Source of the DNA: Escherichia phage CY1_Cui-2023
Reading direction: 5' to 3' (one strand)
Sequence record: OQ357823.1
Length of the DNA stretch: 43,449 bases
Shown here: piece by piece, positions 4,973 through 36,422 of the stretch
Layout of the letters: each line of letters begins with the position of its first letter
Numbering within the stretch: the stretch's first letter is position 1
Position numbers and translations under genes: made by a program
Notes under the pieces: generated by a model
Told to the model about the DNA's origin: nothing
The model's database searches: none
The model's input: only the letters and a program-made list of their open reading frames with translations

Positions 4973-5015
4973 ATAGTACATCACCAATGAAATTTGTCTT
5001 TAGCTATTCGTGCTG
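4973..5015 (-). promoter_or_regulatory. dyad-operator promoter (CAGCA-cgaat-AGCTA, minus strand) with -10-like TACTAT
   Basis: Dyad at 5001-5015 overlaps the last codons (STNS) of the Rha-like gene; -10-like hexamer 30 bp downstream on minus strand; precedes gene starting 4943. Confidence 0.45.
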
Positions 5016-5683
5016 CTTCTTTCCAGCAACGGCTTAATGTCGATACCAAGTTTATTCTCGATCAATCCTGCCAGTGCGTCAGTCTTCTCTTTAAGAGCGA
5101 AACATTGTGCTTCATACCTAAACCTTGCTTCCATTTCATCGGAACGTGATACCCAAGACTGCCGAGCTTCACAAGCGAGAAGGTCAAGCTTCTCGTCAAT
5201 GTTCTTATCCATAAGGAGGATTTCATTGATTCGCTGCTCCGCAACGATTCGCTGGCCAAGGTGAGCGTTCTGCGCATTAGCCACACCAAGCATCACGCGC
5301 GCTTCTTTTAGCTCATCAATACTCACCATCTGGCTGATTACTTCCGTTTGTTTGTTGATGGTGGACTGCATCTCTTTAAGCTTATTAAGAACCGCACGGC
5401 GAACAGACTTTGACTCACGCATTCCAACAAGAAGCATCTGTTCCATATTAAGCACTGGTGAGTTGATTGACTTTCTATAACCCCCTCTCCTCTCACTTTT
5501 GATTACGAAACTTTCGTAGTCAAACTCAAACCCCTCAAGCTCATCCTCTATCCTCTCAACAAAGTCATTGTGCCGAACATCAGATTCACCGGCAACTAAC
5601 CTCGCTGGGTTGATAACTTCATTCAAAAACTGATAACTGTTCATTTTTACATCTTCATTTAGTAGAGTTAGGTTCATTTTCAT
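5000..5683 (-). CDS. Rha-family phage regulatory protein (putative)
   Basis: N-terminal segment LNEVINPARLVAGESDVRHNDFVERI matches the Rha-domain pattern; track ORF begins with TTG at 5710, first in-frame ATGs at 5683/5677; start uncertain. Confidence 0.5.
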   Translation of the reverse strand: MKMNLTLLNEDVKMNSYQFLNEVINPARLVAGESDVRHNDFVERIEDELEGFEFDYESFVIKSERRGGYRKSINSPVLNMEQMLLVGMRESKSVRRAVLNKLKEMQSTINKQTEVISQMVSIDELKEARVMLGVANAQNAHLGQRIVAEQRINEILLMDKNIDEKLDLLACEARQSWVSRSDEMEARFRYEAQCFALKEKTDALAGLIENKLGIDIKPLLERSSTNS

Positions 5684-5782
5684 CTCTCTTCTGGTTTTTT
5701 CATGGCTCAAATCTGAGCCATCACTTTGGTTCCCAGCCTGAAATTTAGGTTGGATGACAGCACCATTGCCGCCACGCGCCTA

Positions 5783-5825
5783 AATATACCTAAAGATAGC
5801 CAGTTGTCTTTAGCAAATCGTGCTA
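5783..5825 (-). promoter_or_regulatory. dyad-operator promoter (TAGCA-cgatt-TGCTA) with -10 TATATT, for the Rha-like gene
   Basis: Dyad 5811-5825 read on minus strand; TATATT exactly 30 bp downstream (5788-5783). Confidence 0.5.
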
Positions 5826-5854
5826 TTTATCGACAATTTCACCATAAATCACAG

Positions 5855-6020
5855 TTACACGTAACCGATGTAACTCGATGTATACAATCTCATCCGCGGG
5901 AAATGATATACTCGCTGTTACGCCAATTTACGCATTGGTTACATTAAAATATCTATATATATCAACCTTTTACTCTTATTATTATTATTATATATATTAC
6001 TGTGTATATCATGTAACTAC
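5855..6020. repeat. intergenic control region with GTAAC/GTTAC motif cluster plus (TA)n and (ATT)5 microsatellites
   Basis: GTTACACGTAACCGATGTAAC, GTTACGCC, GGTTAC at 5862-5945; (TA)4-5 at 5953-5961; TTATTATTATTATTA at 5977-5991; CATGTAAC at 6010-6017; lies between divergent genes. Confidence 0.6.
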
Positions 6021-6313
6021 TTCTATAGAGTGTTCCGGTTATAATTTTAATATCATGTGGATTTATACAGTATTGCGCGGCAGCTATACCAATGCACCCT
6101 CAGCGAGAAACGGCATACACGATATACACGATGTTTACATTGAGCTATGGCTGGCTTGAGATGCCAAAAAGCGTAACTAGTGCCAATGCCTACACGAAAT
6201 TACAAAGATTCACGCGTAAACTTAAATCAACGATTGGCAAAACCAATTGGACTGGTTACGGTGCTGAATATATAGTTACCTCATCGAAAGCAATCAACCA
6301 GAGAGATATATAA

Positions 6314-6508
6314 ATGACCTACTACATTATCAAAGAGAAAAACAACGCACTGTTCGGCGACTGCTACTTTGGAGGAGAGGCCGGTTACACCACGGATAAG
6401 AACGAAGCAGACAGATTCGAGACCAAAGGAGAAGCCCGCGATGTACTGACCGGTTACTTCACTGAAGAAGATTTGAAGTCTGTTAAAGTAGTTAAGGTCA
6501 AGGGGTGA
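6314..6508 (+). CDS. hypothetical protein, 64 aa
   Basis: ORF directly abutting the exonuclease gene; first rightward gene after the control region. Confidence 0.5.
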   Translation: MTYYIIKEKNNALFGDCYFGGEAGYTTDKNEADRFETKGEARDVLTGYFTEEDLKSVKVVKVKG

Positions 6509-6511
6509 GTT

Positions 6512-7477: not shown

Positions 7478-7478
7478 A

Positions 7479-7521
7479 CAGCACGAATTGCTAAAACAAA
7501 ACGGGATGACTTAGGTATAGT
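7479..7521 (+). promoter_or_regulatory. dyad-operator promoter (CAGCA-cgaat-TGCTA) with -10 TATAGT
   Basis: Dyad 7479-7493; -10 at 7516-7521 exactly 30 bp from dyad centre; leader AATCAACAACGAACGAGG precedes ATG 7551. Confidence 0.55.
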
Positions 7522-7550
7522 TATCCAATCAACAACGAACGAGGTTAAAG

Positions 7551-8201
7551 ATGCAAATTTCAGAATTATGCAAATCAATTTTAAAAGCGCTTCACACTGC
7601 TAAATCGCTATTTGCGAAGGCTGAAAAGTCTAAGCAGAACTCTCACTTAAAGAATAAATACGCTACCTTAGAAGACGTTTTGGCGGCTGTTGAGCCTGGT
7701 TTATATGAGTGTGGTTTGGTGATGTTCCAGAGTGTGATTGATGACGAACAAACAAATCGCATGAAGGTCGAGACAAAGCTGTTTCATGTTGAATCTGGAG
7801 AGTGGGTAAGCTTCTTAATGATAGTCCCAATCAGCAAGAATGATGCACAAGGTTACGGATCAGCTTTAACATACGCTCGTCGCTACGGTATCACAGCTGC
7901 CTTGGGTCTTAGCCAGGCTGATGATGACGGAAATCTTGCAGCCAAAGGCGTTAAGGATTTCAAGCGAGAGCTAGAGAAATGCAATACTCTTGATGAACTT
8001 CGTAACGTCTGGAAAGAGGCTAAGCAGTCACTTGATGCGGCTGGATGGAAGGTTTTTGAACCTCACATTATCGAGCGAAAAGCAGAGATTGAGGCTAGTG
8101 CAATGACGGGCTTCAACCCAGCGAAACCTAAGCAGGTTGCACAAAAAGCTGTTCAAGAAGAAAAGGCTGAAGTACAATCTCAAGAAATCGATACATTCTA
8201 A
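7551..8201 (+). CDS. erf: Erf-family single-strand annealing protein
   Basis: YATLEDVLAAVEP and GSALTYARRYGITAALGL match the P22 Erf signature (..YARKY..). Confidence 0.8.
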   Translation: MQISELCKSILKALHTAKSLFAKAEKSKQNSHLKNKYATLEDVLAAVEPGLYECGLVMFQSVIDDEQTNRMKVETKLFHVESGEWVSFLMIVPISKNDAQGYGSALTYARRYGITAALGLSQADDDGNLAAKGVKDFKRELEKCNTLDELRNVWKEAKQSLDAAGWKVFEPHIIERKAEIEASAMTGFNPAKPKQVAQKAVQEEKAEVQSQEIDTF

Positions 8202-10187: not shown

Positions 10188-10252
10188 TGTAAAGTCTCCG
10201 TTTGTAAAATAGCACTAATTGATAAAATTCATTCTACCATCTTTCAGGCAAT

Positions 10253-10272
10253 AAAAAACCTCCCGAAGGAGG
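10253..10272 (-). terminator. intrinsic terminator after primase gene (minus strand)
   Basis: CCTCC-CGAA-GGAGG hairpin followed on minus strand by TTTTTTAT. Confidence 0.6.
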
Positions 10273-11196
10273 TTAGTTTAGTAAGTCGTTGGCTTTGTAT
10301 ATTTTCTTGCGTATTCCTGTTTTAAATGACCTCCCGTCGTTAGGAATCACCACATCAACATTACGATCGTCAGCGACAGCGAGTATATCAGTATCACAAT
10401 CGCGGCAAGCAATCCTGAACCTTCTTGACCTGTCGCGGTGGATAACCATCTCCATATTGTAACAGGAGAAAGCAACAAACACCTCGCGACCCCCAGTAGC
10501 AAGGTGAACATGTACGCCATCAATGTAATTGTCGACAACATAAGTGTAACTATTATCCTGCCTAGAACCAATAACGTAAACAGAATCACGAGTGTAATCA
10601 CCAGCAAGGAACTTAACATTTGAATCCTCATCAATAAACATTACGTTACAAAACTCATCACCAAGCCCATCCTCATAAACCATAGAGCATGGGGTTGCGT
10701 GAATCATTGAACCATCCTTAGCGATACCAACATCAAAACCATCACTAAGGTAAATACCCTCGTATGTCGTGAGTGGACTTGATTCGACTCTCATGGTTCT
10801 CTCCATTACCTCCAGAACTTTCTCGTGGTCGACATGGGCACCCATTTTGTATCGCTGAGTTCTCGACGCTTGCTTGTTTGCTTTAACTATAACCTCAATT
10901 GGTGTTAAGTTCAGCCAGTCACCAAGCAAATTTACTGAATCGGCGAAGGACAATCCAGTGCACTTCATGACCCATCCTATACCTGTATCATTACCGCACT
11001 GACTGCAAATTGCAGCGCCATTACCTTTCTCGTTATTTAATTCATCAGTAAAACGAAACCTATCCTTACCAAAGCAGTAAGGGCATGGCCCGTGTTTCTT
11101 GCTAAGGTTTTCTTTTGTCCAGCCCATGTGAGATTCGTAAAACTTTGACCACATGCCCTTCATTTTTGACAAAACTTCATTCTTATCGTGATGCAT
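10273..11196 (-). CDS. DNA primase (zinc-ribbon plus TOPRIM-like)
   Basis: CPYC...CSQC zinc-binding motif near N-terminus followed by acidic TOPRIM-like region; position beside helicase. Confidence 0.6.
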   Translation of the reverse strand: MHHDKNEVLSKMKGMWSKFYESHMGWTKENLSKKHGPCPYCFGKDRFRFTDELNNEKGNGAAICSQCGNDTGIGWVMKCTGLSFADSVNLLGDWLNLTPIEVIVKANKQASRTQRYKMGAHVDHEKVLEVMERTMRVESSPLTTYEGIYLSDGFDVGIAKDGSMIHATPCSMVYEDGLGDEFCNVMFIDEDSNVKFLAGDYTRDSVYVIGSRQDNSYTYVVDNYIDGVHVHLATGGREVFVAFSCYNMEMVIHRDRSRRFRIACRDCDTDILAVADDRNVDVVIPNDGRSFKTGIRKKIYKANDLLN

Positions 11197-11236
11197 AAAA
11201 AAGCCCTCGCATTTAACTTGAGGGCATTATACATAC

Positions 11237-11719
11237 TCATTCAGATCTTTCTTTAGCTTTTCGTGCGGCTTCGTTGGCAATCTTATTCTTTCGCCATGGT
11301 CGACAGGGTGGCTTTGTTGCTAGTTCTGCATCGGTAACTACGCGAAGCATATGGCGCTTCTTGCATCGAAGTGTTAGCGGTTTTCCGTTTCCGTCGAATT
11401 GCAGGTCTGGTCGGCAGAATGTAGCTCGAAATCCCTCCTTATTTCGCTTGTACGCATTATGTGCTCGCTGAGCCCCTCGAGCCGAAATCATACCGCGGTT
11501 AAACCATTCCGATACAGCTTGGTTGGACACATTTAACTGCTTTGCGATGTTCGCCTTTGTACCGTAGAAATCAAGAACCATCTCCAGGCGAGCACGTAGC
11601 CCAGCCTTTACCTCATCTTTCAATACGTAGTAGCCTGATGGTCGTTTGCGTTGCTTTTTGTCTTTTGTGCGCACGGTTCCGTTATTGCCGTTAATAGTTC
11701 GCTTGTCGATTTCACACAT
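11237..11719 (-). CDS. putative HTH DNA-binding protein (Cro/YdaS-like), 160 aa
   Basis: Segment KQLNVSNQAVSEWFNRG resembles a helix-turn-helix recognition helix; basic N-terminus. Confidence 0.45.
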   Translation of the reverse strand: MCEIDKRTINGNNGTVRTKDKKQRKRPSGYYVLKDEVKAGLRARLEMVLDFYGTKANIAKQLNVSNQAVSEWFNRGMISARGAQRAHNAYKRNKEGFRATFCRPDLQFDGNGKPLTLRCKKRHMLRVVTDAELATKPPCRPWRKNKIANEAARKAKERSE

Positions 11720-11732
11720 CTCATTACCTCAA

Positions 11733-11774
11733 TAGCACTTTTTGTTAAACAATGGGTTCGATGGCTGTTATTAT
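11733..11774 (+). promoter_or_regulatory. dyad-operator promoter (TAGCA-ctttt-TGTTA) with -10 TATTAT, for helicase gene
   Basis: Dyad 11733-11747; -10-like hexamer 11769-11774. Confidence 0.5.
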
Positions 11775-11815
11775 ACATCAATGCAACGAACTAAAGAACT
11801 ATCAGGATATTTAAA

Positions 11816-13810
11816 ATGCTTCCAGTAGAACGCTTAGTGGCAAACTTTGACCAAGAAAAGATTAAGCAGATTCAGAGAGACTATCAGTTTGGAGATATTA
11901 CGCCGTATCCATTCCAGTGCGTGACATTCGACCAAATCGGCAAGAATATTGCTAAGTACGAAGCTCCGTTCATCGCAGACCTGTCTGTATCGGCTGGCAA
12001 GACAATCATTATTGCCATGATTGGTAAACGCATGGAGCAACTTGGCCTTCCTTATATGGTACTTTCTCGCCAGTCTGAAATTATCAGTCAGAACGCTGAA
12101 GAACTTCTCAACTTTGGCATTCGTAATAGCGTATATTGCGCTGGCCTTAACGTTAAATCAGTTTATTACCCAACCATAGTGGCTAGTGAAGGAACGGCTG
12201 CCAATGGATTGTTTAAGGGTCTTGGTGACTATGTTCCTGCGGTTATCGCAATAGATGAGGCACACATGGTGGACCACATGGATATCGTAGAAGCTGAAGA
12301 GAACGAAGAGACATTTGAGCAAATGAGCACCAAGAAAGGCGAAATGGTTTTCAAGGATGGAGTGAATACCGGATTGCTTGGAACTGGTCGTGCGCAGTAC
12401 ACACTAATCATCACTGAAATGAAGCGCCGCTGCAAAGAGAAGTATGGTCGCGAGCTCCGTATATTCGGCTTGACTGGTAGCCCGTATCGTAACAACGACC
12501 ACATTGTAGTTAGTAACCCAAATATTCGTGGCTTCTGGCGCAAGACGGTAATGCAAGTTCCGACCAGTTACCTGGTTGATTTGGGATTCGTTGTTCCAAC
12601 TGTTTACGGTGAGGTTGGTGATTTGGGTTATGACCTTAGCGAGTTTGCACCTGATGGAAGTGATGGCGTTAAGGATTTCAGCAAAAAAGAAATGGATGCA
12701 ATGGCTGCAAAGATTCACGAAAACCAGACGATGACACAAAAGATAATGGGGTTCGTTATCAAAATACTTGAAACACGTAACGCCGCACTGGTAACTTGCG
12801 CTGGTAAAATGCACTGCGATGAAGCGGCTGCTGCTCTACCCGATGGTTATCCTTACGCGATAATCACTGATTCCACTGGTGAGAAGAAGAGAAGGGAAAT
12901 TCTAGATGAATGCCAGACCGGAAAGTACAAGATTATTTTTCAGATTGGATGCTTAACCACAGGCGTTTCGGTGCCTCCGTGGGACACAAGTGTCATACTC
13001 CGCAAGATTGGAAGCCTGACATTAATGATTCAGCTTCTTGGTCGTGGAATGCGAATTCTCAAGAAGAAACATATTGAAATTGGTATGAAAAAGGATGACC
13101 ACTTAGTCCTGGACTTTGCTGGCGCACTTGATGATATGGCTGAACTTTACTTTGATCCAATAATTGAAGAGATTCAGGCCGAGAAGTTTAAGTCATCACG
13201 CAATGGTGATTCAGATGTTCGAGTGTGCCCAATTTGCTCATACGAGAATTCGCCTTTTGCTCGTAGATGCGGAAATAAGATTGACGGAAAGAGATGTGAG
13301 CACTTCTTTACTTTTACAGTTTGTGAAGATATTACAGACCTGCAGACAAAGGCTATTATCAAAAAAGGGTGCGGGACTCGCAATGATATAGCAGCGAAGG
13401 TCTGTCGAGAGTGCGGAGAGATGCTTAAAGACCCCAATGCTAACCTTACAGGTAAGATGTATCGTCGTGGTGATTACCTTCGTGTTTATGATTTTCAAGT
13501 TGGCTTAAGTAAGAATCAAACCGGAATTGTTGTTAAGTACAATATCATGGCTCATAACGGAGATCGGTTTAATGCATGGGAATTCTTCAACCCCGAGTCT
13601 GACCATCGAGTTTGCAGCGTGCTATGGAAGAACTTCTGCCTTGCTCATATAGAGAATCGCGCTGAAGCCACAAGAATTGGCAGACTTCGCAATGCGAGAA
13701 TGATTATGACGAACGTAGATAAGTTCCGCGCACCAGTGCAGGTTACACATAGAAAAAACGGCAAAGGTAAAGATATAATCGCTTTTAAGAATTTTGGAGA
13801 ATTGTTATGA
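11816..13810 (+). CDS. SF2 DNA helicase (DEAH-box) with C-terminal zinc ribbon
   Basis: Walker A-like SVSAGKT, DEAH box (IDEAHMV), C-terminal CPIC...CGNK...C...CRECG cysteine cluster. Confidence 0.75.
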   Translation: MLPVERLVANFDQEKIKQIQRDYQFGDITPYPFQCVTFDQIGKNIAKYEAPFIADLSVSAGKTIIIAMIGKRMEQLGLPYMVLSRQSEIISQNAEELLNFGIRNSVYCAGLNVKSVYYPTIVASEGTAANGLFKGLGDYVPAVIAIDEAHMVDHMDIVEAEENEETFEQMSTKKGEMVFKDGVNTGLLGTGRAQYTLIITEMKRRCKEKYGRELRIFGLTGSPYRNNDHIVVSNPNIRGFWRKTVMQVPTSYLVDLGFVVPTVYGEVGDLGYDLSEFAPDGSDGVKDFSKKEMDAMAAKIHENQTMTQKIMGFVIKILETRNAALVTCAGKMHCDEAAAALPDGYPYAIITDSTGEKKRREILDECQTGKYKIIFQIGCLTTGVSVPPWDTSVILRKIGSLTLMIQLLGRGMRILKKKHIEIGMKKDDHLVLDFAGALDDMAELYFDPIIEEIQAEKFKSSRNGDSDVRVCPICSYENSPFARRCGNKIDGKRCEHFFTFTVCEDITDLQTKAIIKKGCGTRNDIAAKVCRECGEMLKDPNANLTGKMYRRGDYLRVYDFQVGLSKNQTGIVVKYNIMAHNGDRFNAWEFFNPESDHRVCSVLWKNFCLAHIENRAEATRIGRLRNARMIMTNVDKFRAPVQVTHRKNGKGKDIIAFKNFGELL

Positions 13811-14226
13811 AAGTTACAGACAAAACTGACTACCTCGAGTTCTATGGCGGCCCGGTGAAGTCATGCCCGAAGGAAGACGAAGAACAAATCTTTTGCTCTG
13901 ATTGGGTTAAGTATAACTATCCGCAGGTTGTTTACTGGCACACAGTTAATGAATCAATGAAGAGCATTGGTCAGGCAAGGAAAGACCAGGCTAAAGGACT
14001 TCTTAAAGGCGTATCAGACTGCCTATTTCTAATACCTGAGTCATTACGAGGAAGTTATCCATTTGGCGCAATAGAGCTAAAGAGGGCTGGGAAAACACAG
14101 GCTAGCCCAGTAAGTGATGAGCAAAAGTCATTCCTAAAAAGCGTAAGGGAATCAGGCGGTTTCGCAGGAGTTGCCTACGGCAGAGATGGTTTTCTTGCTG
14201 CATTCGCAGAGATGATTAGAAAATAG
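13807..14226 (+). CDS. VRR-NUC domain nuclease
   Basis: DCLFL...IELKRAGK...QKSFLKSVRESGGFAGVAYG matches the VRR-NUC PD-(D/E)XK pattern; ATGA overlap with helicase stop. Confidence 0.7.
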   Translation: MKVTDKTDYLEFYGGPVKSCPKEDEEQIFCSDWVKYNYPQVVYWHTVNESMKSIGQARKDQAKGLLKGVSDCLFLIPESLRGSYPFGAIELKRAGKTQASPVSDEQKSFLKSVRESGGFAGVAYGRDGFLAAFAEMIRK

Positions 14227-14266
14227 CACGAATTGCTAAAGACGAATTGATGAAGTGGTGTATTAT
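14224..14266 (+). promoter_or_regulatory. dyad-operator promoter (TAGCA-cgaat-TGCTA) with -10 TATTAT
   Basis: Dyad 14224-14238 overlaps the TAG stop of the VRR-NUC gene; -10 at 14261-14266; leader ATCGAAACGAAAC. Confidence 0.55.
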
Positions 14267-14304
14267 CACTTCATCGAAACGAAACACACGAAGAGAGAAA
14301 GAAA

Positions 14305-14505
14305 ATGGCTACTATCTATACTGGAAAATTCTACGAATCACGCAAGACCGGTTACCAATACTCACTTGCTATCACAGATGATGGTTATATTCTTATTGAT
14401 GTTGAAGATGTTAACTACGCATTTGAAGTCAGCCCAACTTACAAAGACGATTTAGAAACTGTTAAAAACGCGTTTGGCGAGAAATTTGATGAGGTATCTG
14501 AGTAA
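14305..14505 (+). CDS. hypothetical small acidic protein, 66 aa
   Basis: ORF with purine-rich SD; acidic composition. Confidence 0.5.
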   Translation: MATIYTGKFYESRKTGYQYSLAITDDGYILIDVEDVNYAFEVSPTYKDDLETVKNAFGEKFDEVSE

Positions 14506-14726
14506 TGGCGACTTTAACCTTTGACAAGCAGTGGGAGTTATTTCAGGCAATGGCATCGCAGGAGTTGCACAAGGCTGGATATAAAGGTGATGTTTGGGAT
14601 TTGGCTCGTTGCCTGGATTATAGTTTTGAGGAAGATTACTTGCGAACTGATATCGAAACGTGGCGCGACCGAATGGTTGCAGACATTGCAGAGATGAAGA
14701 AAGATTGCCCAGAGGATTTTAAATAA
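14505..14726 (+). CDS. hypothetical protein, 73 aa
   Basis: ORF starting at the stop of the previous gene (TAATG-type coupling). Confidence 0.5.
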   Translation: MATLTFDKQWELFQAMASQELHKAGYKGDVWDLARCLDYSFEEDYLRTDIETWRDRMVADIAEMKKDCPEDFK

Positions 14727-14851
14727 TGAAAATCTTAGATAAAGAGATGTTCGAGATTGCACAGGTTTATGCGATTGACGCTGTTAAGAATAATTCACAA
14801 TGGTCATGGATGTGCGCTCGTGAATACCTGAAAATGGCATACGGCTTATGA
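14726..14851 (+). CDS. hypothetical small protein, 41 aa (below ORF-track cutoff)
   Basis: ATG 14726 overlaps upstream TAA; stop TGA 14849-14851 overlaps next ATG (ATGA); translation MKILDKEMFEIAQVYAIDAVKNNSQWSWMCAREYLKMAYGL. Confidence 0.3.
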   Translation: MKILDKEMFEIAQVYAIDAVKNNSQWSWMCAREYLKMAYGL

Positions 14852-15090
14852 TAGTTGAAACAGGAAGGGCCGCGGTCTGGACCCACTGCGCAGAGGCTGG
14901 GCTTCAGGATGACATTAAGATGATATCTAAGTATTTTGATATAAAAGATATCAGCGTTATTTTCAACGGTAAATTTACGTACATGGATGAAAGGCCGCGC
15001 AAGTATGTCAGGGTTAAGCCTGGCGTAACGATAGACACAAATGAGTTCCTGAAAGAGCAGGGATTCAAATTTAAGATAACGAAGGGTTAG
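14848..15090 (+). CDS. hypothetical protein, 80 aa
   Basis: ORF, ATGA coupling with previous small ORF. Confidence 0.45.
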   Translation: MIVETGRAAVWTHCAEAGLQDDIKMISKYFDIKDISVIFNGKFTYMDERPRKYVRVKPGVTIDTNEFLKEQGFKFKITKG

Positions 15091-15092
15091 TT

Positions 15093-15344
15093 ATGTTTGG
15101 ATTAGATTTTCAGCCTGAGCATTATGATTTGGTGCGTGGGAGTAGTGGTGCTAAGTTTAGGGCGATACCTATTGCTGATTGGTTTCCTCCTGACTATGCG
15201 GATGTTAATGCGAAGACGAAGGATGGAAAGTGGGTTCAGATTTATTACTCGCCAGCGTGCGGCAATCTCTGCATGACTGACCTGGACGAGAAATTAGCAA
15301 TTAGTGCGAATTTAATTGATTACTGGCTGAAAGAGGTTGTATGA
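15093..15344 (+). CDS. hypothetical protein, 83 aa
   Basis: ORF with AAGGG SD. Confidence 0.45.
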   Translation: MFGLDFQPEHYDLVRGSSGAKFRAIPIADWFPPDYADVNAKTKDGKWVQIYYSPACGNLCMTDLDEKLAISANLIDYWLKEVV

Positions 15345-15425
15345 AGTACGCCGTCCTAGTAGCATTAGTACCACTGTTTAGCTTTACTATCTTATATTTT
15401 ATCGTGATGAACTAAGGATTTGAAA

Positions 15426-16559: not shown

Positions 16560-16563
16560 TAAA

Positions 16564-16606: not shown

Positions 16607-16636
16607 AATCAAACACAAACGAGATGGTAAACAAAA

Positions 16637-18073: not shown

Positions 18074-18077
18074 GTGC

Positions 18078-25029: not shown

Positions 25030-25180
25030 CACATGTTTATTCCCGAAATGTGATGAATTTGTTGAGGATTTAATCTACTTCAATGAGAAATACGGTGACA
25101 CGTTTGAGTGCGATGGCGATACAGACGAAGTATTAGCAACTTTTGATAGAGGGCCAGATGTAGACAGCACGAATAGCTAA
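25022..25180 (+). CDS. hypothetical small Cys-containing protein, 52 aa, GTG start (tentative)
   Basis: GTG 25022 preceded by GAGGAT SD; ends DSTNS-stop inside the dyad operator like several other genes; overlaps previous ORF in another frame. Confidence 0.25.
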   Translation: MLNTCLFPKCDEFVEDLIYFNEKYGDTFECDGDTDEVLATFDRGPDVDSTNS

Positions 25181-25207
25181 ACGTGACAGGCATTGATGCC
25201 ATATAAT
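25165..25207 (+). promoter_or_regulatory. dyad-operator promoter variant (CAGCA-cgaat-AGCTA) with consensus -10 TATAAT
   Basis: Dyad 25165-25179; hairpin GGCATTGATGCC in spacer; TATAAT 25202-25207; leader AATCAAACAACGAGAGG. Confidence 0.55.
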
Positions 25208-26298: not shown

Positions 26299-26823
26299 AT
26301 GAAAGACGAAAACTTCACCAGCCAGGCGCAAGAAAAGATTCGCTCTGGCAACTTCAAAGCCATGTACAACAAAAAGTATTCTGACATTACAACTCTGTCC
26401 AAAAACCGAATAATGACCCCAGAGCAGCTATTCGACCTGGCCGTGAAATACTTCTCATGGGCTGAGAGCCAGGCAATCAAGGCAATTGAGACAGCCAGCT
26501 TCCAGGGTGTCGTAACCGAGAATCTGGTGCACAAGCCACGAGTCTTCACACTAACAGGATTCTGCCTTTACTGCGGTGTTACCCATAGCGCAATAGAGAA
26601 ATGGAGGAAGTCGGCGGGTTATGACGAGGTAATTGCATTCATTGATTCCGTGATTCGCGAGCAGAAGTATCAGCTGGCAGCGTCTGGCATTGTTAACCCT
26701 GGCATGATTTCCAAAGAACTTGGCATCGATAAGCCGCAGGAGATTACTATAAGCAATAACTCTTCAGCTAACGACGTTGGCACGATGAAGGAAGCGCTGG
26801 AGTCTGTGATTAGTAAGCTGTAG
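26299..26823 (+). CDS. terS: terminase small subunit
   Basis: 174-aa ORF with strong SD AAAGGAGG, positioned immediately upstream of the HNH and large terminase genes. Confidence 0.6.
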   Translation: MKDENFTSQAQEKIRSGNFKAMYNKKYSDITTLSKNRIMTPEQLFDLAVKYFSWAESQAIKAIETASFQGVVTENLVHKPRVFTLTGFCLYCGVTHSAIEKWRKSAGYDEVIAFIDSVIREQKYQLAASGIVNPGMISKELGIDKPQEITISNNSSANDVGTMKEALESVISKL

Positions 26824-26862
26824 CACTTTTTGTTAAAAGAAGAGGCCCAATCAATGAGATAA
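26821..26862 (+). promoter_or_regulatory. dyad-operator promoter (TAGCA-ctttt-TGTTA) with -10 GATAAT, upstream of HNH gene
   Basis: Dyad 26821-26835 overlaps terS stop; -10-like GATAAT 26857-26862 sits in the loop of hairpin GGCCCA...TGGGCC. Confidence 0.45.
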
Positions 26863-26891
26863 TGGGCCCAACAAACTAGCGAGGTGATCAT

Positions 26892-32046: not shown

Positions 32047-32991
32047 ATGGCCATTAAATTTGATGCAGAACAAGCAAAAATCACCGCTCACCTAGAGCAA
32101 ATGGGCGTAGATAAGGCTGATGCTGCTGGTATCTGGACCGTTAAGCAGTTAACCGCATCACTGAATCGCGCTTACGAAAAAGAATACGCAGACAACTCAG
32201 TTGTCAACATCTTCCCAGTAACCAACGAAATCCCTGGTCACGCGAAATACTTCGAATACCCTGAGTTCGATGGTGTTGGTATTGCTCAGATCATCGCTGA
32301 TTACTCTGACGACCTGCCGCTGGTTGATGCTTTCATGACCGAGAAGCAGGGTAAAGTATTCCGCTTCGGTAATGCGTTTATGATCTCAGTTGATGAGATT
32401 AAAGTTGGCGCTGCTACTGGTCAGTCACTGTCCGCTCGCAAACAGGCTTTGGCTTTTGAAGCTCACGACAACCTGCTTGATAAACTGGTATGGTCTGGCT
32501 CTGCACCTCACGGCATCGTAGGCGTATTTAACCAGCCGAACATCAACAACGTTGTTGCAACTCCAAACTGGAGCAATCCAATTAACGCGGTTAACGACGT
32601 TACCGCAATGATTGATGCTGTAGAAACCAGCACACAGGGCTTCCACCATGTAACTGACATTCTGCTGCCAGCTTCCGCTCGCCGTGTAATGCAGCGCCTT
32701 GTTGATAATACAACCCTGAGCTATGGCGAGTTGTTTACTCGTAACAACCCAGGTGTAACCCTGCGCTTTATGCAGTTCCTGGATAACTACGATGGTGCTG
32801 GCGGTAAAGCTGCGCTGGCGTTTGAAAAGGATCCGCTCAACATGAGCATCGAGATTCCGGAAGTTACAAACGTTTTACCTGGTCAGCCTCGTGATCTTCA
32901 CTTCCGCTTCCCTGTAACCTCTAAGGCGACAGGTTTGATTTTATATCGCCCTCTTACAGTGGCAGCTATCAAAGGAATTACCTTTGCCTAA
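32047..32991 (+). CDS. major capsid protein
   Basis: 314-aa ORF with SD AAGGAA, positioned after portal/scaffold/decoration genes; abundant-protein-like codon usage. Confidence 0.7.
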   Translation: MAIKFDAEQAKITAHLEQMGVDKADAAGIWTVKQLTASLNRAYEKEYADNSVVNIFPVTNEIPGHAKYFEYPEFDGVGIAQIIADYSDDLPLVDAFMTEKQGKVFRFGNAFMISVDEIKVGAATGQSLSARKQALAFEAHDNLLDKLVWSGSAPHGIVGVFNQPNINNVVATPNWSNPINAVNDVTAMIDAVETSTQGFHHVTDILLPASARRVMQRLVDNTTLSYGELFTRNNPGVTLRFMQFLDNYDGAGGKAALAFEKDPLNMSIEIPEVTNVLPGQPRDLHFRFPVTSKATGLILYRPLTVAAIKGITFA

Positions 32992-33034
32992 TAGCACTAA
33001 ATGACAAAACAATACCACCGAAAGGTGGTATTTT
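32992..33034 (+). promoter_or_regulatory. degenerate dyad operator (TAGCA-ctaaa-TGACA) with terminator hairpin in spacer, upstream of second HNH gene
   Basis: Dyad 32992-33006 right after capsid stop; hairpin ACCACC-GAAA-GGTGGT plus TTTTT 33013-33035; weak -10 TATTTT 33029-33034; leader CATCAAAACAATGGAGG. Confidence 0.35.
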
Positions 33035-33062
33035 TGTTTCCATCAAAACAATGGAGGCGAAA

Positions 33063-34481: not shown

Positions 34482-34849
34482 ATTACTCTCAAATCGAATC
34501 ATTAATGCGAGCGGGAATCAATATCTTTAGTGATGGCGATGGTACGTTTACCATGGAAACTGGTAAAGGTGGGGTGGAGATTGTCGATGGTGTCGAGGTT
34601 CCTGTATCTGGCGGCACTGCATTAATCAAGGGGCTGGTGAGGGAGATTAAAACCAGAGATATTGATGGTGAGTATATTCAGTTTGGCGATAAGCGTGGAA
34701 TCTTCACTTCCGAGGTGCCAATCTTGCAAGGCTACAGGATTATTGTTGATGACGAAACTTACACTGTAGTCGACCCGAGACCAGTGAAACCAACAGGTAC
34801 TGTAGTCGCATACAGGCCAATTCTGAGGAGGATTGCTGCTTATGGCTAA
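34478..34849 (+). CDS. putative head-tail joining protein
   Basis: ATGA-coupled ORF in the connector region. Confidence 0.45.
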   Translation: MNYSQIESLMRAGINIFSDGDGTFTMETGKGGVEIVDGVEVPVSGGTALIKGLVREIKTRDIDGEYIQFGDKRGIFTSEVPILQGYRIIVDDETYTVVDPRPVKPTGTVVAYRPILRRIAAYG

Positions 34850-35279
34850 TAATGTTGGTGGCTTAGCTACATTCACGAACTCTATCAATGACTGGATTTC
34901 AAGAGCTGATGATGGTTTTTCTGAAATTGTTTCAGGCACTGTAATTAAAGCAGCTAACGCCATTGTTGATTTATCTCCTGTTGATACTGGTAGGTTTAAG
35001 GCTAACTGGCAGATTACAGCAAACTCACCAGCAGTACAGTCGTTAAATGATTACGACAAGACTGGCGGTGATACAAAAAGGTACCTTGCAAGACAAGCCA
35101 GAGCAGTAGCTAACTCACCAGCAACAAAGGTTATCTACATAACCAACAGGCTAGATTATGCGTCAGATCTTGAATACGGTGCATCGCAGCAAGCGCCAGC
35201 AGGTGTACTTGGTGTAGTTAATATCAGACTTGGTCGATACTTTGAGGAAGCCGTTGCTGAAGCGAGGAGTAAACGATAA
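34842..35279 (+). CDS. putative head-tail adaptor / tail completion protein
   Basis: SD GAGGAGG before ATG 34842; coupled to neighbours. Confidence 0.45.
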   Translation: MANNVGGLATFTNSINDWISRADDGFSEIVSGTVIKAANAIVDLSPVDTGRFKANWQITANSPAVQSLNDYDKTGGDTKRYLARQARAVANSPATKVIYITNRLDYASDLEYGASQQAPAGVLGVVNIRLGRYFEEAVAEARSKR

Positions 35280-35677
35280 TGCAGTATGAGCTATCTTTAG
35301 CATCAAGGAGGTTTGTGACTGATTTGGTTAAAACGTTTCCAGTCAGGTATCCAATCTCCTACGAAAACGTAGCATTCTCTCCTCCAAGTAATGGCGGTAT
35401 GTGGCTGAAGTACGACTACACTGAGGCCGATACCGTAACCTATAGCTTGAGTCGCAAGTGCAAATACTATGTCGGCATGGTTCAGGTCTCTGTATTTTTC
35501 TCACCAGGTGATGGTGTTGATAGCGCAAGGAGGTTGGCGAATCAATTGGCAGAATCAATGCTTGATGGTACAATGCTTGACACAGGCTACATTTATGAGG
35601 GCGGAGTAGTTCACCCGGTAGTGAAGTCAAAATCTGGCTGGTTTATTCCAGTTCGTTTCTATGTTCGTCTTGACTAA
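35279..35677 (+). CDS. putative tail terminator protein
   Basis: TAATG-coupled ORF immediately upstream of the major tail gene. Confidence 0.45.
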   Translation: MQYELSLASRRFVTDLVKTFPVRYPISYENVAFSPPSNGGMWLKYDYTEADTVTYSLSRKCKYYVGMVQVSVFFSPGDGVDSARRLANQLAESMLDGTMLDTGYIYEGGVVHPVVKSKSGWFIPVRFYVRLD

Positions 35678-35688
35678 AAGGAAAATAT

Positions 35689-36348
35689 ATGGCCCATCTC
35701 AGCAATGGCACCCAGGTCTTCGTAGAGGGCACTAGGGGTAATACTATCGACGTAACAGCAATTACCAATGCTGTTGCTCCTGTTTTAACTTTGTCCGACG
35801 CCACAGGTATTGCGCGCGGGGATTACCTGCTGTTCACCAGCTCAGCTTCAACACTTCTGGCTGATAAGCAAGTTCGTGTCACCGCGGTATCTGGTTCGGA
35901 CGTAACTGTTGAAGGTATTGATACCTCCAACAACACTAAGTTTCCAGCCGGTTTAACTGGTGAAGTAGTTAAGATTCTTAGCTGGTTTGAAGTTCCTTGT
36001 GTTCAGGATGTATCCACTGACGGCGGCGAACAGCAGTTCGTTAACTTCCAGTGTTTATCTGATGACCGCGAGCAACAGATTCCAACCTATAAGTCTGCGG
36101 TAACTAACACCTACACGTTCGCGCACGAATACACCAACCCGGTATATCCGATTCTGCGTAACTATGATGAGTCTGGTCAGGTTGTTGCTATCCGTCTGTT
36201 CGTGCCTCGCGCTAGTGAGATGCGACTTCAGTCTGGCACTATCTCTTTCAACGACACCCCGAGCATTGGTGTTAACGAAATCGAAACGGTATCCATCGCG
36301 GTATCCATCCGTGGTAGGCTGAGTTCTGTGGCTTCTGAGCTAGTATAA
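35689..36348 (+). CDS. major tail protein
   Basis: 219-aa ORF with SD AAAGGAAA, followed by a strong terminator and then the chaperone and tape-measure genes. Confidence 0.65.
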   Translation: MAHLSNGTQVFVEGTRGNTIDVTAITNAVAPVLTLSDATGIARGDYLLFTSSASTLLADKQVRVTAVSGSDVTVEGIDTSNNTKFPAGLTGEVVKILSWFEVPCVQDVSTDGGEQQFVNFQCLSDDREQQIPTYKSAVTNTYTFAHEYTNPVYPILRNYDESGQVVAIRLFVPRASEMRLQSGTISFNDTPSIGVNEIETVSIAVSIRGRLSSVASELV

Positions 36349-36353
36349 AATTA

Positions 36354-36375
36354 ACCCTCTTCGGAGGGTTTTTTA
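36354..36375 (+). terminator. intrinsic terminator after major tail gene
   Basis: CCCTC-TTCG-GAGGG followed by TTTTTT. Confidence 0.7.
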
Positions 36376-36379
36376 TTGA

Positions 36380-36422
36380 TAGCACTTTTTGTTAAAGACG
36401 TGTGGCAGGGATTTGCTATTAT
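36380..36422 (+). promoter_or_regulatory. dyad-operator promoter (TAGCA-ctttt-TGTTA) with -10 TATTAT
   Basis: Dyad 36380-36394; -10 36417-36422; leader ATCGAAACGAGATGG before ATG 36462. Confidence 0.5.

Follow-up and report, generated by a model that had tools for sequence, protein, structure and literature searches.

A match to the host MarA/SoxS/Rob binding site takes the place of the −35 hexamer at promoters of a T1-like coliphage

Results

The window, that is the whole 43,449-nt stretch of DNA analysed here (OQ357823.1), derives from a Drexlerviridae coliphage; a comparison with phage Rao1 over 8 kb showed 99.7% identity. The window contains a repeat with the consensus aAATAGCAC(GAA/TTT)TTG(C/T)TAAA, of which 17 strong copies were found compared to ∼0.3 expected. 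A −10 hexamer follows 16 of these copies at a fixed distance, and most of them are succeeded by a conserved CATCGAAACGAA leader and then by a gene. A sequence-only reading had listed this motif, as the dyad TAGCA-N5-TG(C/T)TA, at 15 coordinates, all of which hold a copy or a one- to two-mismatch variant. Its frequency is indeed above the shuffled expectation (10 distinct sites, or 16 strand matches, versus 0.33), and it is also enriched in related genomes. Two further strong copies are located at 4684 (−), a full promoter, and at 10210 (+), without a −10 hexamer, while weaker copies are present at 11250–11270 (−) and 19708–19728 (−). The full element extends over ∼21 bp and is asymmetric, the 5+5 bp dyad representing only its symmetric core. 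The motif had not been recognised from described T1-like promoters, but a 2024 study on phage TLS already describes the repeat, mentions it for T1, Rtp, and Rogue1 as well, assigns no definite function to it and reports only three sigma-70-like promoters (2024 TLS paper).

The features are given below, with the 20-bp form of the element termed marbox after the host site that it matches. Starts are throughout predicted from sequence (∼6–7 nt after the −10 hexamer), and gaps are counted from the 15-bp core to the −10 hexamer, a gap of 20 bp corresponding to 18 bp from the end of the 20-bp element.

4649–4699, minus: cassette not included in the earlier list; marbox 4699–4680 ATAGCATTAATTGCTAAAGA, −10 TATGAT 4661–4656, gap 20 bp, predicted start ∼4649 CCATCGAAACGA, 26.4 bits; serves an 80-aa ORF (4614–4372, minus)
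4964–5016, minus: cassette; marbox 5016–4997 GCAGCACGAATAGCTAAAGA, −10 TACTAT 4978–4973, gap 20 bp, 22.8 bits; precedes ORF 4943–4683
5775–5826, minus: cassette; marbox 5826–5807 ATAGCACGATTTGCTAAAGA, −10 TATATT 5788–5783, gap 20 bp, 32.2 bits; precedes anti-repressor-like ORF 5677–5000
7478–7527, plus: cassette; marbox 7478–7497 ACAGCACGAATTGCTAAAAC, −10 TATAGT 7516–7521, gap 20 bp, 31.8 bits; precedes recombinase gene 7551–8201
10209–10228, plus: lone marbox ATAGCACTAATTGATAAAAT, no −10 at class II distance, 28.0 bits
11219–11270, minus: weaker cassette, likewise new; marbox-like AGCCGCACGAAAAGCTAAAGA 11270–11250, TATAAT 11231–11226, gap 20 bp, 12.1 bits; primase gene 11196–10273 downstream; Rtp counterpart at 34815 (−)
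11237–11719, minus: gene of a 160-aa protein, Cro-type HTH at ∼residues 47–72; homologues in T1 and Rtp carry the annotation transcriptional regulator
11732–11780, plus: cassette; marbox 11732–11751 ATAGCACTTTTTGTTAAACA, −10 TATTAT 11769–11774, gap 19 bp, 30.7 bits; precedes helicase gene 11816–13810
14223–14273, plus: cassette; marbox 14223–14242 ATAGCACGAATTGCTAAAGA, −10 TATTAT 14261–14266, gap 20 bp, predicted start ∼14273 TCATCGAAACGA, 32.6 bits; 9-bp inverted repeat GATGAAGTG/CACTTCATC on either side of the −10
16563–16615, plus: cassette; marbox 16563–16582, spacer hairpin CCCAGAgaaaTCTGGG, −10 TATATT 16601–16606, gap 20 bp, 27.1 bits; precedes polynucleotide kinase gene 16637–17185
17773–17823, plus: cassette; marbox 17773–17792 ATAGCACGAATCGCTAAACA, −10 TATAAT 17811–17816, gap 20 bp, 28.4 bits; precedes ORF 17848–18021 and downstream lysis genes
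21189–21241, minus: cassette; marbox 21241–21222 GCAGCACGAATTGATAATGC, −10 TATAAT 21203–21198, gap 20 bp, 20.4 bits; precedes DUF3987 protein gene 21167–19584
21784–21834, minus: cassette; marbox 21834–21815, −10 TATAGT 21796–21791, gap 20 bp, predicted start ∼21784 TCATCGAAACGA, 33.1 bits; terminator-like hairpin AAAGCCCttcgGGGCTTT in the spacer
22593–22644, minus: cassette; marbox 22644–22625 ATAGCACTTTTTGCTAATGA, −10 CATAAT 22605–22600, gap 21 bp, 27.7 bits; first promoter of the leftward small-gene set
24247–24297, plus: cassette; marbox 24247–24266 ATAGCACGAATTGCTAAACA, spacer hairpin GCCGGAgaaaTCCGGC, −10 CATAAT 24285–24290, gap 20 bp, 32.4 bits
25164–25213, plus: cassette; marbox 25164–25183 ACAGCACGAATAGCTAAACG, −10 TATAAT 25202–25207, gap 20 bp, 22.5 bits
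26820–26870, plus: cassette; marbox 26820–26839, −10 GATAAT 26858–26863, gap 20 bp, 25.1 bits; GGCCCA/TGGGCC inverted repeat around the −10; HNH gene and large terminase gene downstream
32991–33042, plus: cassette; marbox 32991–33010 ATAGCACTAAATGACAAAAC, −10 TATTTT 33029–33034, gap 20 bp, predicted start ∼33042 CCATCAAAAC, 20.8 bits; the −10 is formed by the T-run of a terminator hairpin AATACCACCgaaaGGTGGTATT within the spacer
36379–36429, plus: cassette; marbox 36379–36398, −10 TATTAT 36417–36422, gap 20 bp, predicted start ∼36429 TTATCGAAACGA, 28.3 bits; immediately after terminator 36353–36370, heads the tail-gene operon

The gap is exactly 20 bp at 14 of the 17 window sites. Among 95 sites from six Drexlerviridae genomes it is exactly 20 bp in 73 and 19–21 bp in 85. 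A dyad centre 30 bp upstream of the −10 had been reported for 12 of the 15 listed sites; the spacing holds, whereas the count is 13 by programmatic −10 calls, with 29 bp at 11733 and 31 bp at 22629. Relative to the predicted start the element spans ∼−50 to −31, is centred near −40/−41 and occupies the place of the −35 hexamer. In agreement with the former notion that no usable −35 exists here, the best match to TTGACA at 16–18 bp spacing was 2–4 of 6 bases, which does not exceed that in shuffled spacers. The earlier view of a genome-wide promoter family, with near-consensus −10 hexamers, no −35 and a conserved protein-binding element at the class II position of ∼−41 before genes on both strands, is thus supported in this part. 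Canonical sigma-70 promoters were not enriched over shuffles (55 versus 42.5 ± 7.1, and 35 versus 34.2 ± 6.2).

Since the element overlaps the proximal UP subsite and the −35 positions, it might be an UP-element or extended −35-like sequence that RNA polymerase itself recognises, by means of its alpha C-terminal domains or of sigma region 4, without any activator, a possibility raised by the authors of the TLS study. The A-rich flanks (AAA upstream, TAAAA downstream), the near-consensus −10 hexamers and the frequent G at −14 would suit this explanation. However, the invariant bases are GCAC and G and not the UP-defining A/T tracts, the −35 match does not exceed chance, and TG at −15/−14 is found at only 23 of 71 sites. 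An exact match to a known activator site (see below) would also be left without explanation, so that we consider an activator-free element improbable.

The symmetry of the element was assessed with sites picked by a self-complementary pattern, hence no orientation was favoured by the selection. Matching flanks on the two sides were seen in none of the 18 real sites; C at −44 has T at −40 as its counterpart, and AA forms the outer flank on either side. Throughout the 95 sites variation is confined to one arm, without a compensating change on the other, and the element keeps a single orientation with respect to the −10. A single dimeric HTH factor reading a dyad, as had been suggested, is therefore not supported, as the element is asymmetric, has one orientation and equals the monomer-read marbox.

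The same sites bear on whether the dyad functions as nucleic-acid structure (RNA hairpin or DNA cruciform), or whether the cassette is conserved mainly as a linker for recombination, comparable to PeSL cassettes in T4-type phages. The dyad permits a 5-bp stem closed by a 5-nt loop (−2.9 kcal/mol as RNA), the C-to-T variant retains a G–U pair on the sense strand, the stem-loops around the −10 are PeSL-like, and the cassettes recur across phage families. Nevertheless, many of the one-sided changes break a pair. The TTT variant does not fold stably as DNA, and its RNA form reaches only −0.5 kcal/mol. Conservation is as strong in the loop bases and the non-pairing flanks as in the stem, and the inferred start site is located downstream of the element. 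Base-specific conservation matching a protein site would not be explained by a linker, though linker and promoter roles could coexist. Taken as the whole explanation, structure or linkage is highly improbable.

In forward orientation the element matches both published consensus sequences of the MarA/SoxS/Rob marbox, and its 20-bp form A-T-A-GCAC-(G/T)WW-TTG-Y-TAAA-A is a near-consensus marbox. The MarA consensus GCAnnWWnTGnnAAA, which was derived from ChIP (PMC12052159), is matched exactly at 11 places in the window, while ∼0.3–0.9 are expected by calculation and block shuffles, and AYNGCACNNWNNRYYAAAY is matched at ≤1 mismatch at 11 places, while 0.98 are expected. Besides the ChIP-derived consensus, an older 19-letter marbox consensus was used. 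The marbox is an asymmetric site of monomeric MarA/SoxS/Rob, which bind it through two different HTH motifs. At class II promoters it is in forward orientation, overlaps the −35 region, is centred near −41 and lacks a recognisable −35 (PMC10268841, PMC12052159, PMC8811837, PMC9638938); the phage sites agree in every one of these points. The structurally solved class II marbox promoter, E. coli micF, has its marbox at 87–101 (ACAGCACTGAATGTCAAAAC, comparable to ACAGCACGAATTGCTAAAAC at 7478–7497), its −10 TAGAAT at 122–127 and the annotated RNA 5' end at 135, with the same 20-bp gap and orientation as the phage sites. A weight matrix built from the phage sites alone scored the micF marbox with 13.8 bits in forward and the marRAB operator marbox with 13.2 bits in reverse orientation, each being the single top match in its own region (next best scores below −3.5). 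The mar site ATGCCACGTTTTGCTAAATC shares 17 of 20 bases with phage sites such as ATAGCACGTTTTGCTAAAAC. A difference that we counted against a marbox is the B-box, which is TAAA in the phage element but is given as CAAA for the soxbox. Although the repeat is known since 2024, no paper linking it to the marbox was found.

Searches with MarA and SoxS (tblastn and phmmer) revealed no MarA-like protein in the phage, and Pfam and PHROGs scans revealed no AraC-type family among the candidate proteins. Of two conserved small early proteins, one was modelled as an all-beta fold (low confidence) and the other as helical with a beta hairpin; the PDB matches of the latter were all insignificant, the weak top ones being winged-helix regulators and none AraC-type. 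The phosphoesterase at 15426–16559, credited earlier with an HTH-like N-terminus, has no HTH family in Pfam and only a weak, below-threshold Metallophos_2 match; its homologue in the T1 record is annotated as SbcD-like exonuclease. The Rha-like protein, another factor proposed before, is encoded by an anti-repressor-like accessory gene (5003–5677, minus), which is lacking in T1 and Rtp, two phages with the motif. The window does not contain the true Rha gene known in Rao1.

The third protein named earlier, encoded at 11237–11719, keeps its candidate status, while the dimeric reading of a dyad assigned to it is not supported. Its Cro-type HTH match is weak and below the Pfam threshold, its PHROG family is 'transcriptional regulator', and it is conserved with 52–86% identity in 830 Drexlerviridae records, including T1 and Rtp. 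Among the proteins of the phage, it is the only conserved and plausible candidate for an element-binding factor. The gene has a putative promoter (minus-strand TATAAT 11772–11767, then CCATCGAAC) without a marbox, and this TATAAT overlaps face to face with the −10 of the plus-strand cassette 11732–11780. The element could be an operator at which this protein binds in class II position and activates all promoters, with the marbox likeness being coincidence or a mimicry that puts the phage protein in competition with host activators. A regulator gene next to a marbox promoter, but with its own promoter devoid of the element, would fit a bootstrapping activator circuit, and half-site centres 10 bp apart would fit an HTH dimer. 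We regard this, the leading alternative to a host activator, as conceivable but unlikely, because Cro/CI-type proteins usually act on symmetric operators and convergence on every specified marbox base and on the exact micF spacing would be demanded. Furthermore, the early leftward and rightward gene sets begin at these same promoters, and complete cassettes also occur in a phage from a group that probably lacks the regulator.

T1, Rtp, Msk, Klebsiella phage mtp29 (Webervirus), and Hanrivervirus C4 carry 13–20 copies per genome (∼0.35 expected), and a lambdoid control phage carries one. Where a host of a related phage is named, it is nearly always an enterobacterium; enterobacteria possess MarA, SoxS and Rob or RamA; in Klebsiella, RamA is also among the AraC-family activators of the marbox. 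Complete cassettes are also present in Lw1, an RB43-like T4-type phage, and in a further two large viral contigs (61 and 179 kb). Since none of 30 evenly sampled records with the 160-aa regulator is T4-sized, RB43-like phages as a group probably lack it, an argument that is indirect.

Discussion

Nearly every promoter of this T1-like coliphage has a match to the MarA/SoxS/Rob site in place of the −35 hexamer. We propose, with a probability of roughly 60%, that the elements belong to class II promoters driven by host Rob/MarA/SoxS. Each element would form the upstream half of an activator-dependent sigma-70 promoter. As modelled on the micF cryo-EM complexes, one activator molecule would insert one recognition helix into GCAC and the other into the TAAA box, and would touch sigma-70 region 4 and an alpha C-terminal domain. 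Host RNA polymerase would thereby be recruited and start at the conserved CA ∼6–7 nt past the −10, giving short leaders that begin with AUCGAAACGA. The activator would be supplied by the host as constitutively abundant Rob, plus MarA and SoxS under stress. A host origin is most likely, since no AraC-type protein was detected and canonical promoters are not recognisable; because canonical sigma-70 matches do not exceed shuffles, an activator present before phage gene expression is the simplest reading. If true, this suggests that the phage family borrows host stress activators for the expression of its own genes.

Selection for T1 resistance in E. coli has classically given tonA and tonB mutants and not rob, so that loss of Rob alone probably does not block T1. 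Activation by host proteins would then require that Rob, MarA and SoxS can stand in for one another, or that the promoters retain some activity of their own. In unstressed cells MarA and SoxS are scarce and much of the Rob is reportedly sequestered, and for a fast lytic phage it looks risky to rely on stress regulators. We also counted against a host activator the conserved 160-aa HTH protein with its element-free putative promoter, and the 10-bp spacing of the TAGCA/TGCTA half-sites, which suits an HTH dimer as well.

The lone marbox at 10209–10228 runs opposite to the adjoining minus-strand primase and tail-fibre genes and overlaps the region in which transcription from the tail-fibre promoter probably starts, and it may be a site of repression. 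Such a reversed copy in a repressing position would agree with repressor sites in general ('stoperators' or operators), at which a phage regulator closes promoters or stops read-through for temporal control, as would asymmetric intergenic sites oriented with transcription, for which the TLS authors drew the analogy to mycobacteriophage L5 stoperators. For the whole family we judge this quite improbable: 85 of 95 sites within 19–21 bp of a −10 argue for a promoter part and not a free-standing elongation block, something must activate promoters that have no −35 without the element, and the family is virulent with no lysogeny module in annotated relatives. Similar sites in the same orientation as 10209–10228 lie between the primase and tail-fibre genes of T1 (34904) and Rtp (33764), and Msk has a near-identical cassette at 23041.

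A repeated element with the features of a class II marbox promoter

The repeat aAATAGCAC(GAA/TTT)TTG(C/T)TAAA that recurs through the window is best read as the activator site of class II marbox promoters, which would be driven by the host regulators MarA, SoxS or Rob. Judged from sequence comparison, we give this reading a probability of about 0.6.

The sequence-only reading had reported 15 dyads of the form TAGCA-N5-TG(C/T)TA, 12 of them lying exactly 30 bp before a -10 hexamer, and this observation is confirmed. The motif or a close variant is present at all 15 coordinates, and at 13 of them the -10 begins exactly 30 bp past the dyad centre (29 and 31 bp at the other two). TAGCA-N5-TG(C/T)TA gives 16 strand matches (10 distinct sites), compared to 0.33 in dinucleotide-preserving shuffles, none of which attained 16; with one mismatch allowed, 30 matches are found in the window for 7.3 expected. 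A position weight matrix identifies 17 window sites above 20 bits, comprising the same 15 together with 4684(-) and 10210(+), and three weaker sites at 10-12 bits. Sites beyond the original 15 include:

4684, minus strand: complete promoter
10209-10228, plus strand: strong lone marbox that lies between the primase and tail-fibre genes (both on the minus strand) and points against them, with no -10 at class II distance
11250-11270, minus strand: weaker marbox, followed by TATAAT at canonical spacing, just upstream of the primase gene

The lone marbox could be a conserved site at which the same factor represses the tail-fibre gene.

A TAGAAT hexamer lies close by on the minus strand, and positions 10209-10228 overlap the stretch that immediately follows it. 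Counterparts of the lone marbox lie between the primase and tail-fibre genes of T1 (34904) and Rtp (33764), and Msk carries a near-identical cassette at 23041, where the neighbouring genes are without annotation.

Promoter geometry

To describe the promoters, 95 sites were collected from six genomes, namely the window, T1, Rtp, Msk, Klebsiella phage mtp29 and Hanrivervirus C4. The aligned layout is aAATAGCAC(GAA/TTT)TTG(C/T)TAAA(g/a)ac, a spacer of ~18 variable bp, gGTATAaT, tAc-cCATCGAAACGAA, a Shine-Dalgarno sequence and the start codon, the latter at a median of ~75 nt from the start of the element in the window. Counting from the 15-bp core, the -10 follows after 20 bp in 73 of the 95 sites. 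Orientation is forward, with GCAC upstream and AAA beside the -10, in all 16 promoter-linked window sites and in 85/95 sites of the six genomes. The element also lies 19-21 bp from the -10 in 85 of the 95 sites, which speaks against stoperator-type repressor sites as in mycobacteriophage L5, since these are asymmetric but scattered through transcription units and promoter-independent.

The column profile was built from the 71 sites that have a good -10 at the modal position. Columns left free by the search pattern are strongly conserved, too. Positions -51 and -50 are A, -49 is T, and -42 and -41 are W; T occupies -40 in 69/71 and -39 in 65/71 sites, -37 is C or T, -33 is A in 66/71, and T is absent at -32. 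The consensus of these sites is AA-T-AGCAC-nWW-TTG-Y-TAAA-A. Their -10 reads T-A-T-a-a-T, with T at position 1 in 59 and at position 3 in 61 sites, A2 and T6 being favoured by the selection of the 71; a G occupies -14 in 55/71.

The conserved CA, 6-7 nt past the -10, is probably the transcription start, which gives predicted positions near 4649, 7527, 14273, 21784, 24297, 33042 and 36429. Counted from this inferred start context, the core centre falls at ~-40, which agrees with the earlier placement of the site near -41. The earlier statement that no usable -35 is present also stands, as the best match is 2-4/6, the same as in shuffled spacers. TTGCTA was rejected as a -35 hexamer because 22-23 bp to the -10 is too far. 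A sigma-54 promoter, suggested by the likeness of TGGCACG-N4-TTGC to the motif, was rejected by inspection, since the GG/GC spacing is 2 bp short and the site has AG in place of GG.

Predicted starts, e.g. at 4649, 14273, 21784 and 36429, carry a conserved leader box, (C)ATCGAAACGA(A/G), in columns +1 to +12. At 21-36 nt the leaders are short, and A and C prevail in them; conservation of the box spans Drexlerviridae subfamilies as well as the cassettes (element, spacer, -10 and leader) of phage Lw1. The leader box could have a role in promoter escape, mRNA stability or translation.

Symmetry of the element

The site had also been taken as two-fold symmetric and bound by a dimeric activator of the CRP/FNR type, and this part of the sequence-only reading is not supported. 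The pattern AGCA-N5-TGCT, by which 18 real sites were picked, is its own reverse complement, so the selection was unable to bias orientation. In 15/18 sites one inner flank is C and the other A, and no site has identical inner flanks; the outer flanks are A and T, one of each, in every one of the 18. If flank types were independent per side, half of the sites would be expected to be same-flanked, and the probability of 0/18 would be ~4e-6. Changes in the five 'stem' pairs are confined, over all 95 sites, to the promoter-proximal arm; the G:C pair, for example, is replaced by G:T in 30 cases, by G:A in 8 and by G:G in 2, and compensation on the other arm is absent. The TTT variant has no stable DNA fold. 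The flank asymmetry, the one-sided variation and the unstable fold of the TTT variant speak against both a symmetric site for a homodimer and a hairpin or cruciform; an RNA hairpin or cruciform was rejected on the absence of compensatory changes.

CRP class II promoters, to which the sites had been compared, likewise have the activator site over the -35 region at about the same position. However, the CRP site is a 22-bp symmetric sequence read by a homodimer, whereas the element is asymmetric and fixed in orientation.

Similarity to marbox promoters of the host

A marbox consists of an A box (GCAC) and a B box (CAAA), with one HTH of a single monomer on each (PMC9638938), and the consensus derived from ChIP-seq by the Grainger laboratory is gcannwwntgnnaaa (PMC12052159). 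The window holds 11 exact matches to this consensus, compared to ~0.3 calculated and 0.9 in block shuffles. An older marbox consensus is AYnGCACnnWnnRYYAAAY, for which we count four exact and seven one-mismatch matches in the window (11 in total, for 0.98 expected).

In class II promoters the marbox is in forward orientation and overlaps the -35, and the sites cluster near -41 (PMC12052159, PMC9638938, PMC10268841). A recognisable -35 is lacking, matches never exceeding 3/6 (PMC10268841), and published windows for class II sites are -36 to -55, or 30-42 bp before the transcription start. The phage promoters conform in every respect, that is in orientation, -35 overlap, centre, absence of a -35 and a normal -10, and the element with its conserved flanks fits a marbox of MarA, SoxS or Rob.

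Two regulatory regions of E. coli MG1655 allow a direct comparison. In micF, a class II promoter solved with RamA and SoxS, the sequence is acaGCACTGAATGTCAAAAcaaaacc...TAGAAT, with 20 bp between core and -10 and the annotated RNA 5' end 7 nt past the hexamer; the phage sequence at 7478 is ACAGCACGAATTGCTAAAACAAAAC. The marRAB operator contains GATTTAGCAAAACGTGGCAT, whose reverse complement, ATGCCACGTTTTGCTAAATC, is identical at 17/20 positions to phage sites such as ATAGCACGTTTTGCTAAAAC. A weight matrix made from phage sites only scores the micF marbox at 13.8 bits in forward and the mar marbox at 13.2 bits in reverse direction, which are their known orientations. Each is the sole top match in its own region of ~250 bp, where the next best is below -3.5, and in a 47-kb control phage only two positions reach at least 13 bits with this matrix.

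Like class II promoters of MarA, SoxS and Rob, such as micF, the phage promoters have an asymmetric 20-bp site with GCAC and (Y)AAA boxes ~7 bp apart, which lies forward over the -35 region with its centre near -41, a 20-bp core-to--10 distance and no recognisable -35 hexamer. They differ from the degenerate host marboxes in being much nearer to consensus and far more uniform, and in having TAAA instead of CAAA as B box. Unlike a host stress regulon, they make up nearly the whole promoter set of a virulent phage.

Relation to published repeats and promoters

The motif had not been recognised from described T1-like promoters, but it was published in 2024 for phage TLS (PMC11447400). The re-annotation of TLS lists a 21-nt direct repeat, aaATAGCACnnnTTGnTAAAA, at 21 places, running along transcription ~76 nt before start codons, with AAA, TTT and GAA subgroups, and notes the repeat in T1, Rtp and Rogue1 as well (PMC11447400). 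The window element has the same consensus, the same transcription-wise orientation, ~75 nt to the start codon and GAA/TTT/AAA subgroups, and by these sequence features it is the TLS repeat. Stoperators, unidentified enhancer-binding sequences and UP elements were suggested for TLS while the function was left open, and neither a fixed -10 spacing nor a link to the marbox was described (PMC11447400). An UP element, a stoperator, a hairpin or a linker of the PeSL type each fails to account for the invariant G/C, the fixed -10 distance or the one-sided variation. Our literature search, in which subscription journals were thinly covered, found no published link of these phages or of the motif to MarA, SoxS, Rob or the marbox. 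The motif itself is known; what appears to be new is the proposed mechanism and its reach over the full set of promoters in a family of virulent phages.

T4 middle promoters, which depend on MotA and AsiA, resemble the phage promoters in keeping a sigma-70 -10 and having an activator box where the -35 would be. Within the element, TTGCTAAA is loosely similar to the MotA box, TGCTTtA. The MotA box is, however, centred near -30 and the element near -40, and MotA and AsiA are phage-encoded proteins. A promoter of the T4 middle type was rejected because of the centre at ~-40 and because general Pfam and PHROGs scans of the candidate proteins gave no matching families.

Distribution across phages

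Matches to AGCAC-N5-GNTAA number 20 in T1, 17 in Rtp, 15 in Hanrivervirus C4, 14 in Msk and 13 in Klebsiella phage mtp29, with ~0.35 expected in each; the unrelated temperate Erwinia phage phiEt88, which served as negative control, has one. By these counts the architecture is common to the three named Drexlerviridae subfamilies sampled (Tunavirinae, Braunvirinae and Tempevirinae) and to the genus Webervirus. Where hosts of related phages are named, they are nearly always enterobacteria.

A scan of IMG/VR returned mostly T1-sized contigs with many matches each. Complete cassettes, consisting of marbox, hairpin, TATAGT and a CCCATCGAAACGAA leader, were also found in Lw1, in a 179-kb contig (near-identical cassette) and in a 61-kb contig, and a 1.5-kb Lw1 segment has 584 matching places in 181 records. 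This distribution suggests that the cassette moves between phage families.

In Lw1, an RB43-like phage of the T4 type (KC801932.2), the cassettes lie at ~10256-10908 on the minus strand amid a cluster of tiny genes. Two of the cassette copies outside the T1-like phages have a marbox-to--10 distance of 31 bp rather than 20, which adds about one turn of the helix, with a terminator hairpin in between. About 20 records named 'Campylobacter phage' are Drexlerviridae (MG065657.1, MG065688.1), and among them the C4 record, a Hanrivervirus marked UNVERIFIED, has a marbox promoter set of the enterobacterial type. The 'Campylobacter' host label is probably wrong.

Probable source of the activator

No MarA/SoxS homologue was detected in any reading frame by tblastn and phmmer against all six-frame ORFs, and Pfam and PHROGs scans of the candidate regulators gave no AraC-type domain. 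These scans returned a weak Cro-type HTH in a 160-aa protein and one anti-repressor-like protein. The latter was rejected as activator, since T1 and Rtp have no homologue of it. Two further candidates are the conserved genes of small early proteins:

19248-19580, minus strand: small early protein gene, found in Drexlerviridae-like sequences only
21244-21594, minus strand: small early protein gene, found in Drexlerviridae-like sequences only

For the 111-aa protein the structure model is confident (pLDDT 94), helical with a beta hairpin; all its PDB matches are insignificant (E > 0.2), and the weak top matches are winged-helix regulators, none of them of the AraC type. The 117-aa protein gives an all-beta model of low confidence. 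As far as the predicted folds tell, the two proteins are not MarA-like. The T1 record labels the homologue of the 111-aa protein 'HTH domain-containing protein' and notes for both small-protein homologues an HHpred match, with 88% probability, to the regulator RipR.

Matches to canonical sigma-70 promoters do not exceed shuffled expectation in either half of the window, and none scores above 10/12. For TLS only three sigma-70-like promoters were listed (PMC11447400). The gene sets that diverge from ~22,700, which corresponds to the ends of the Rao1 record, all start with cassettes. Since no MarA-like phage protein was detected, canonical promoters are not in excess and the diverging gene sets begin with cassettes, the simplest reading is that the activator is supplied by the host and is present in the cell before the DNA arrives. 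Of the three host regulators, Rob is constitutively abundant, and MarA and SoxS increase under stress; in Klebsiella, RamA would act as activator. Classical selections for T1 resistance are known for tonA and tonB mutants rather than rob mutants. It is therefore unlikely that Rob by itself is essential, and redundancy of MarA, SoxS and Rob or a residual promoter activity has to be assumed.

The main alternative is that the 160-aa Cro-like protein, encoded at 11237-11719 on the minus strand and homologous to T1 and Rtp genes annotated as transcriptional regulators, is a phage-made activator that reads the element, which we regard as unlikely. It is 52-86% identical across the family, and its Cro-type HTH match stays below the threshold of Pfam. 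Upstream of its gene on the minus strand, a perfect TATAAT is followed by CCATCGAAC, and a marbox 20 bp further upstream is absent, which fits an activator that bootstraps from an independent promoter. In such a circuit, the marbox of the divergent helicase promoter would fall within the regulator leader. However, Cro-type proteins normally bind symmetric operators, in contrast to the asymmetric element, and the alternative would require convergence of an unrelated protein on all specified marbox bases and on the micF spacing. For these two reasons we rank the 160-aa protein below the host activators. A mixed model is possible, with a host activator switching on the promoters and the phage protein setting the timing by competition for the same sites.

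With tblastn, the T1 Cro-like regulator was found in 830 records, and 30 of 30 evenly sampled ones are phages of 44-52 kb. RB43-like records sharing the cassette-bearing segment number 181, and several T4-sized phages would be expected in the sample if they had the regulator. As there were none, the RB43-like phages seem to be without it. The cassette thus seems to persist where the Cro-like regulator is absent, which lends modest and indirect support to a host factor.

At 11760-11780 the helicase -10 (TATTAT, plus strand) and the TATAAT of the regulator (minus strand) overlap face to face, and the regulator leader would include the helicase marbox as its reverse complement. The two promoters probably compete for RNA polymerase. 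An inverted-repeat search found no separate conserved operator near the regulator gene that is common to the window, T1 and Rtp.

Implications for phage and host

Transcription in the T1 family is a long-standing open question, and promoter predictors find almost no promoters. The marbox reading gives a concrete and readily testable mechanism for the unexplained 21-nt repeat. We tentatively propose, at slightly less than even odds, that the Drexlerviridae have handed almost all promoter recognition to host MarA, SoxS and Rob, and that the same portable cassette has spread to RB43-like phages of the T4 type. If so, the family would offer a clear example of virulent phages relying on host stress activators for essentially all transcription, and expression of the phage genes would depend on the state of the cell with respect to antibiotics, oxidative stress and bile salts. 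A triple mutant in rob, marA and soxS would then be a resistant or strongly impaired host, and new host resistance loci would be identified. Hundreds of replicating genomes with ~17-20 near-consensus marboxes each would titrate the regulators and, in the course of infection, weaken the intrinsic drug-resistance response of the host. Interactions of antibiotics and bile salts with therapeutic phages would also be predicted, Drexlerviridae and Webervirus being common in cocktails against E. coli and Klebsiella, and very strong near-consensus marbox promoters would become available as tools. Should the Cro-like protein be the reader instead, the element would still be the promoter code of the family.

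Stem-loops in the cassettes

Many cassettes contain inverted repeats, in the window at 14250-14275, 26845-26870, 16583-16600, 24270-24287, 21802-21819 and 33011-33032, and in T1 at 1452, 2271, 3537, 4346 and 4866. Some spacer hairpins end at the -10, and a few are full terminators whose T-run provides the -10. In other cassettes the arms lie around the -10, e.g. GGGGTAA...TTACCCC or GATGAAGTG...CACTTCATC. The mean best stem is 5.49 bp, compared to 4.81 bp in chimera controls. Termination of the upstream transcript, stabilisation of mRNA 3' ends and recombination are possible roles.

The inverted repeats resemble the stem-loops of the PeSL cassettes of T4-type phages. PeSL cassettes, known from RB49 and phi1, combine an early promoter with a stem-loop and have a sigma-70 consensus -35 and an A/T-rich upstream region (PMC2839356). 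Both kinds are repeated intergenic cassettes of ~75-100 bp, common to several genomes, with promoter, stem-loop, Shine-Dalgarno sequence and start codon, and in both the stem-loop, often GGGG...CCCC, lies between or over the promoter elements. Unlike PeSL, the T1-type cassette has the marbox where PeSL has the -35. Stem-loops are present and modestly enriched in the T1-type cassettes, but as the -35 consensus is absent, these cassettes fall outside the PeSL class.

Identity of the window and differences to Rao1

Escherichia phage Rao1 shows 99.7% identity to window positions 11000-19000; over the whole window, its identity is 94-99.8% for most of the length and ~75% in two tail-gene segments. 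The window is also related to TR1-3, Msk, SU57 and AugustePiccard, and those relatives that have a taxonomy line are Drexlerviridae (T1-like siphoviruses). Compared to the Rao1 record it is a circular permutation. From the alignment, the differences between the two phages (Rha, J, K/I) are mosaic and located in accessory and host-range genes. A Rha-family gene between the Rao1 tail genes L and K is missing in the window (41626-42062 compared to Rao1 18739-19448), and the J (1-3387) and K/I regions show only ~75% identity to Rao1.
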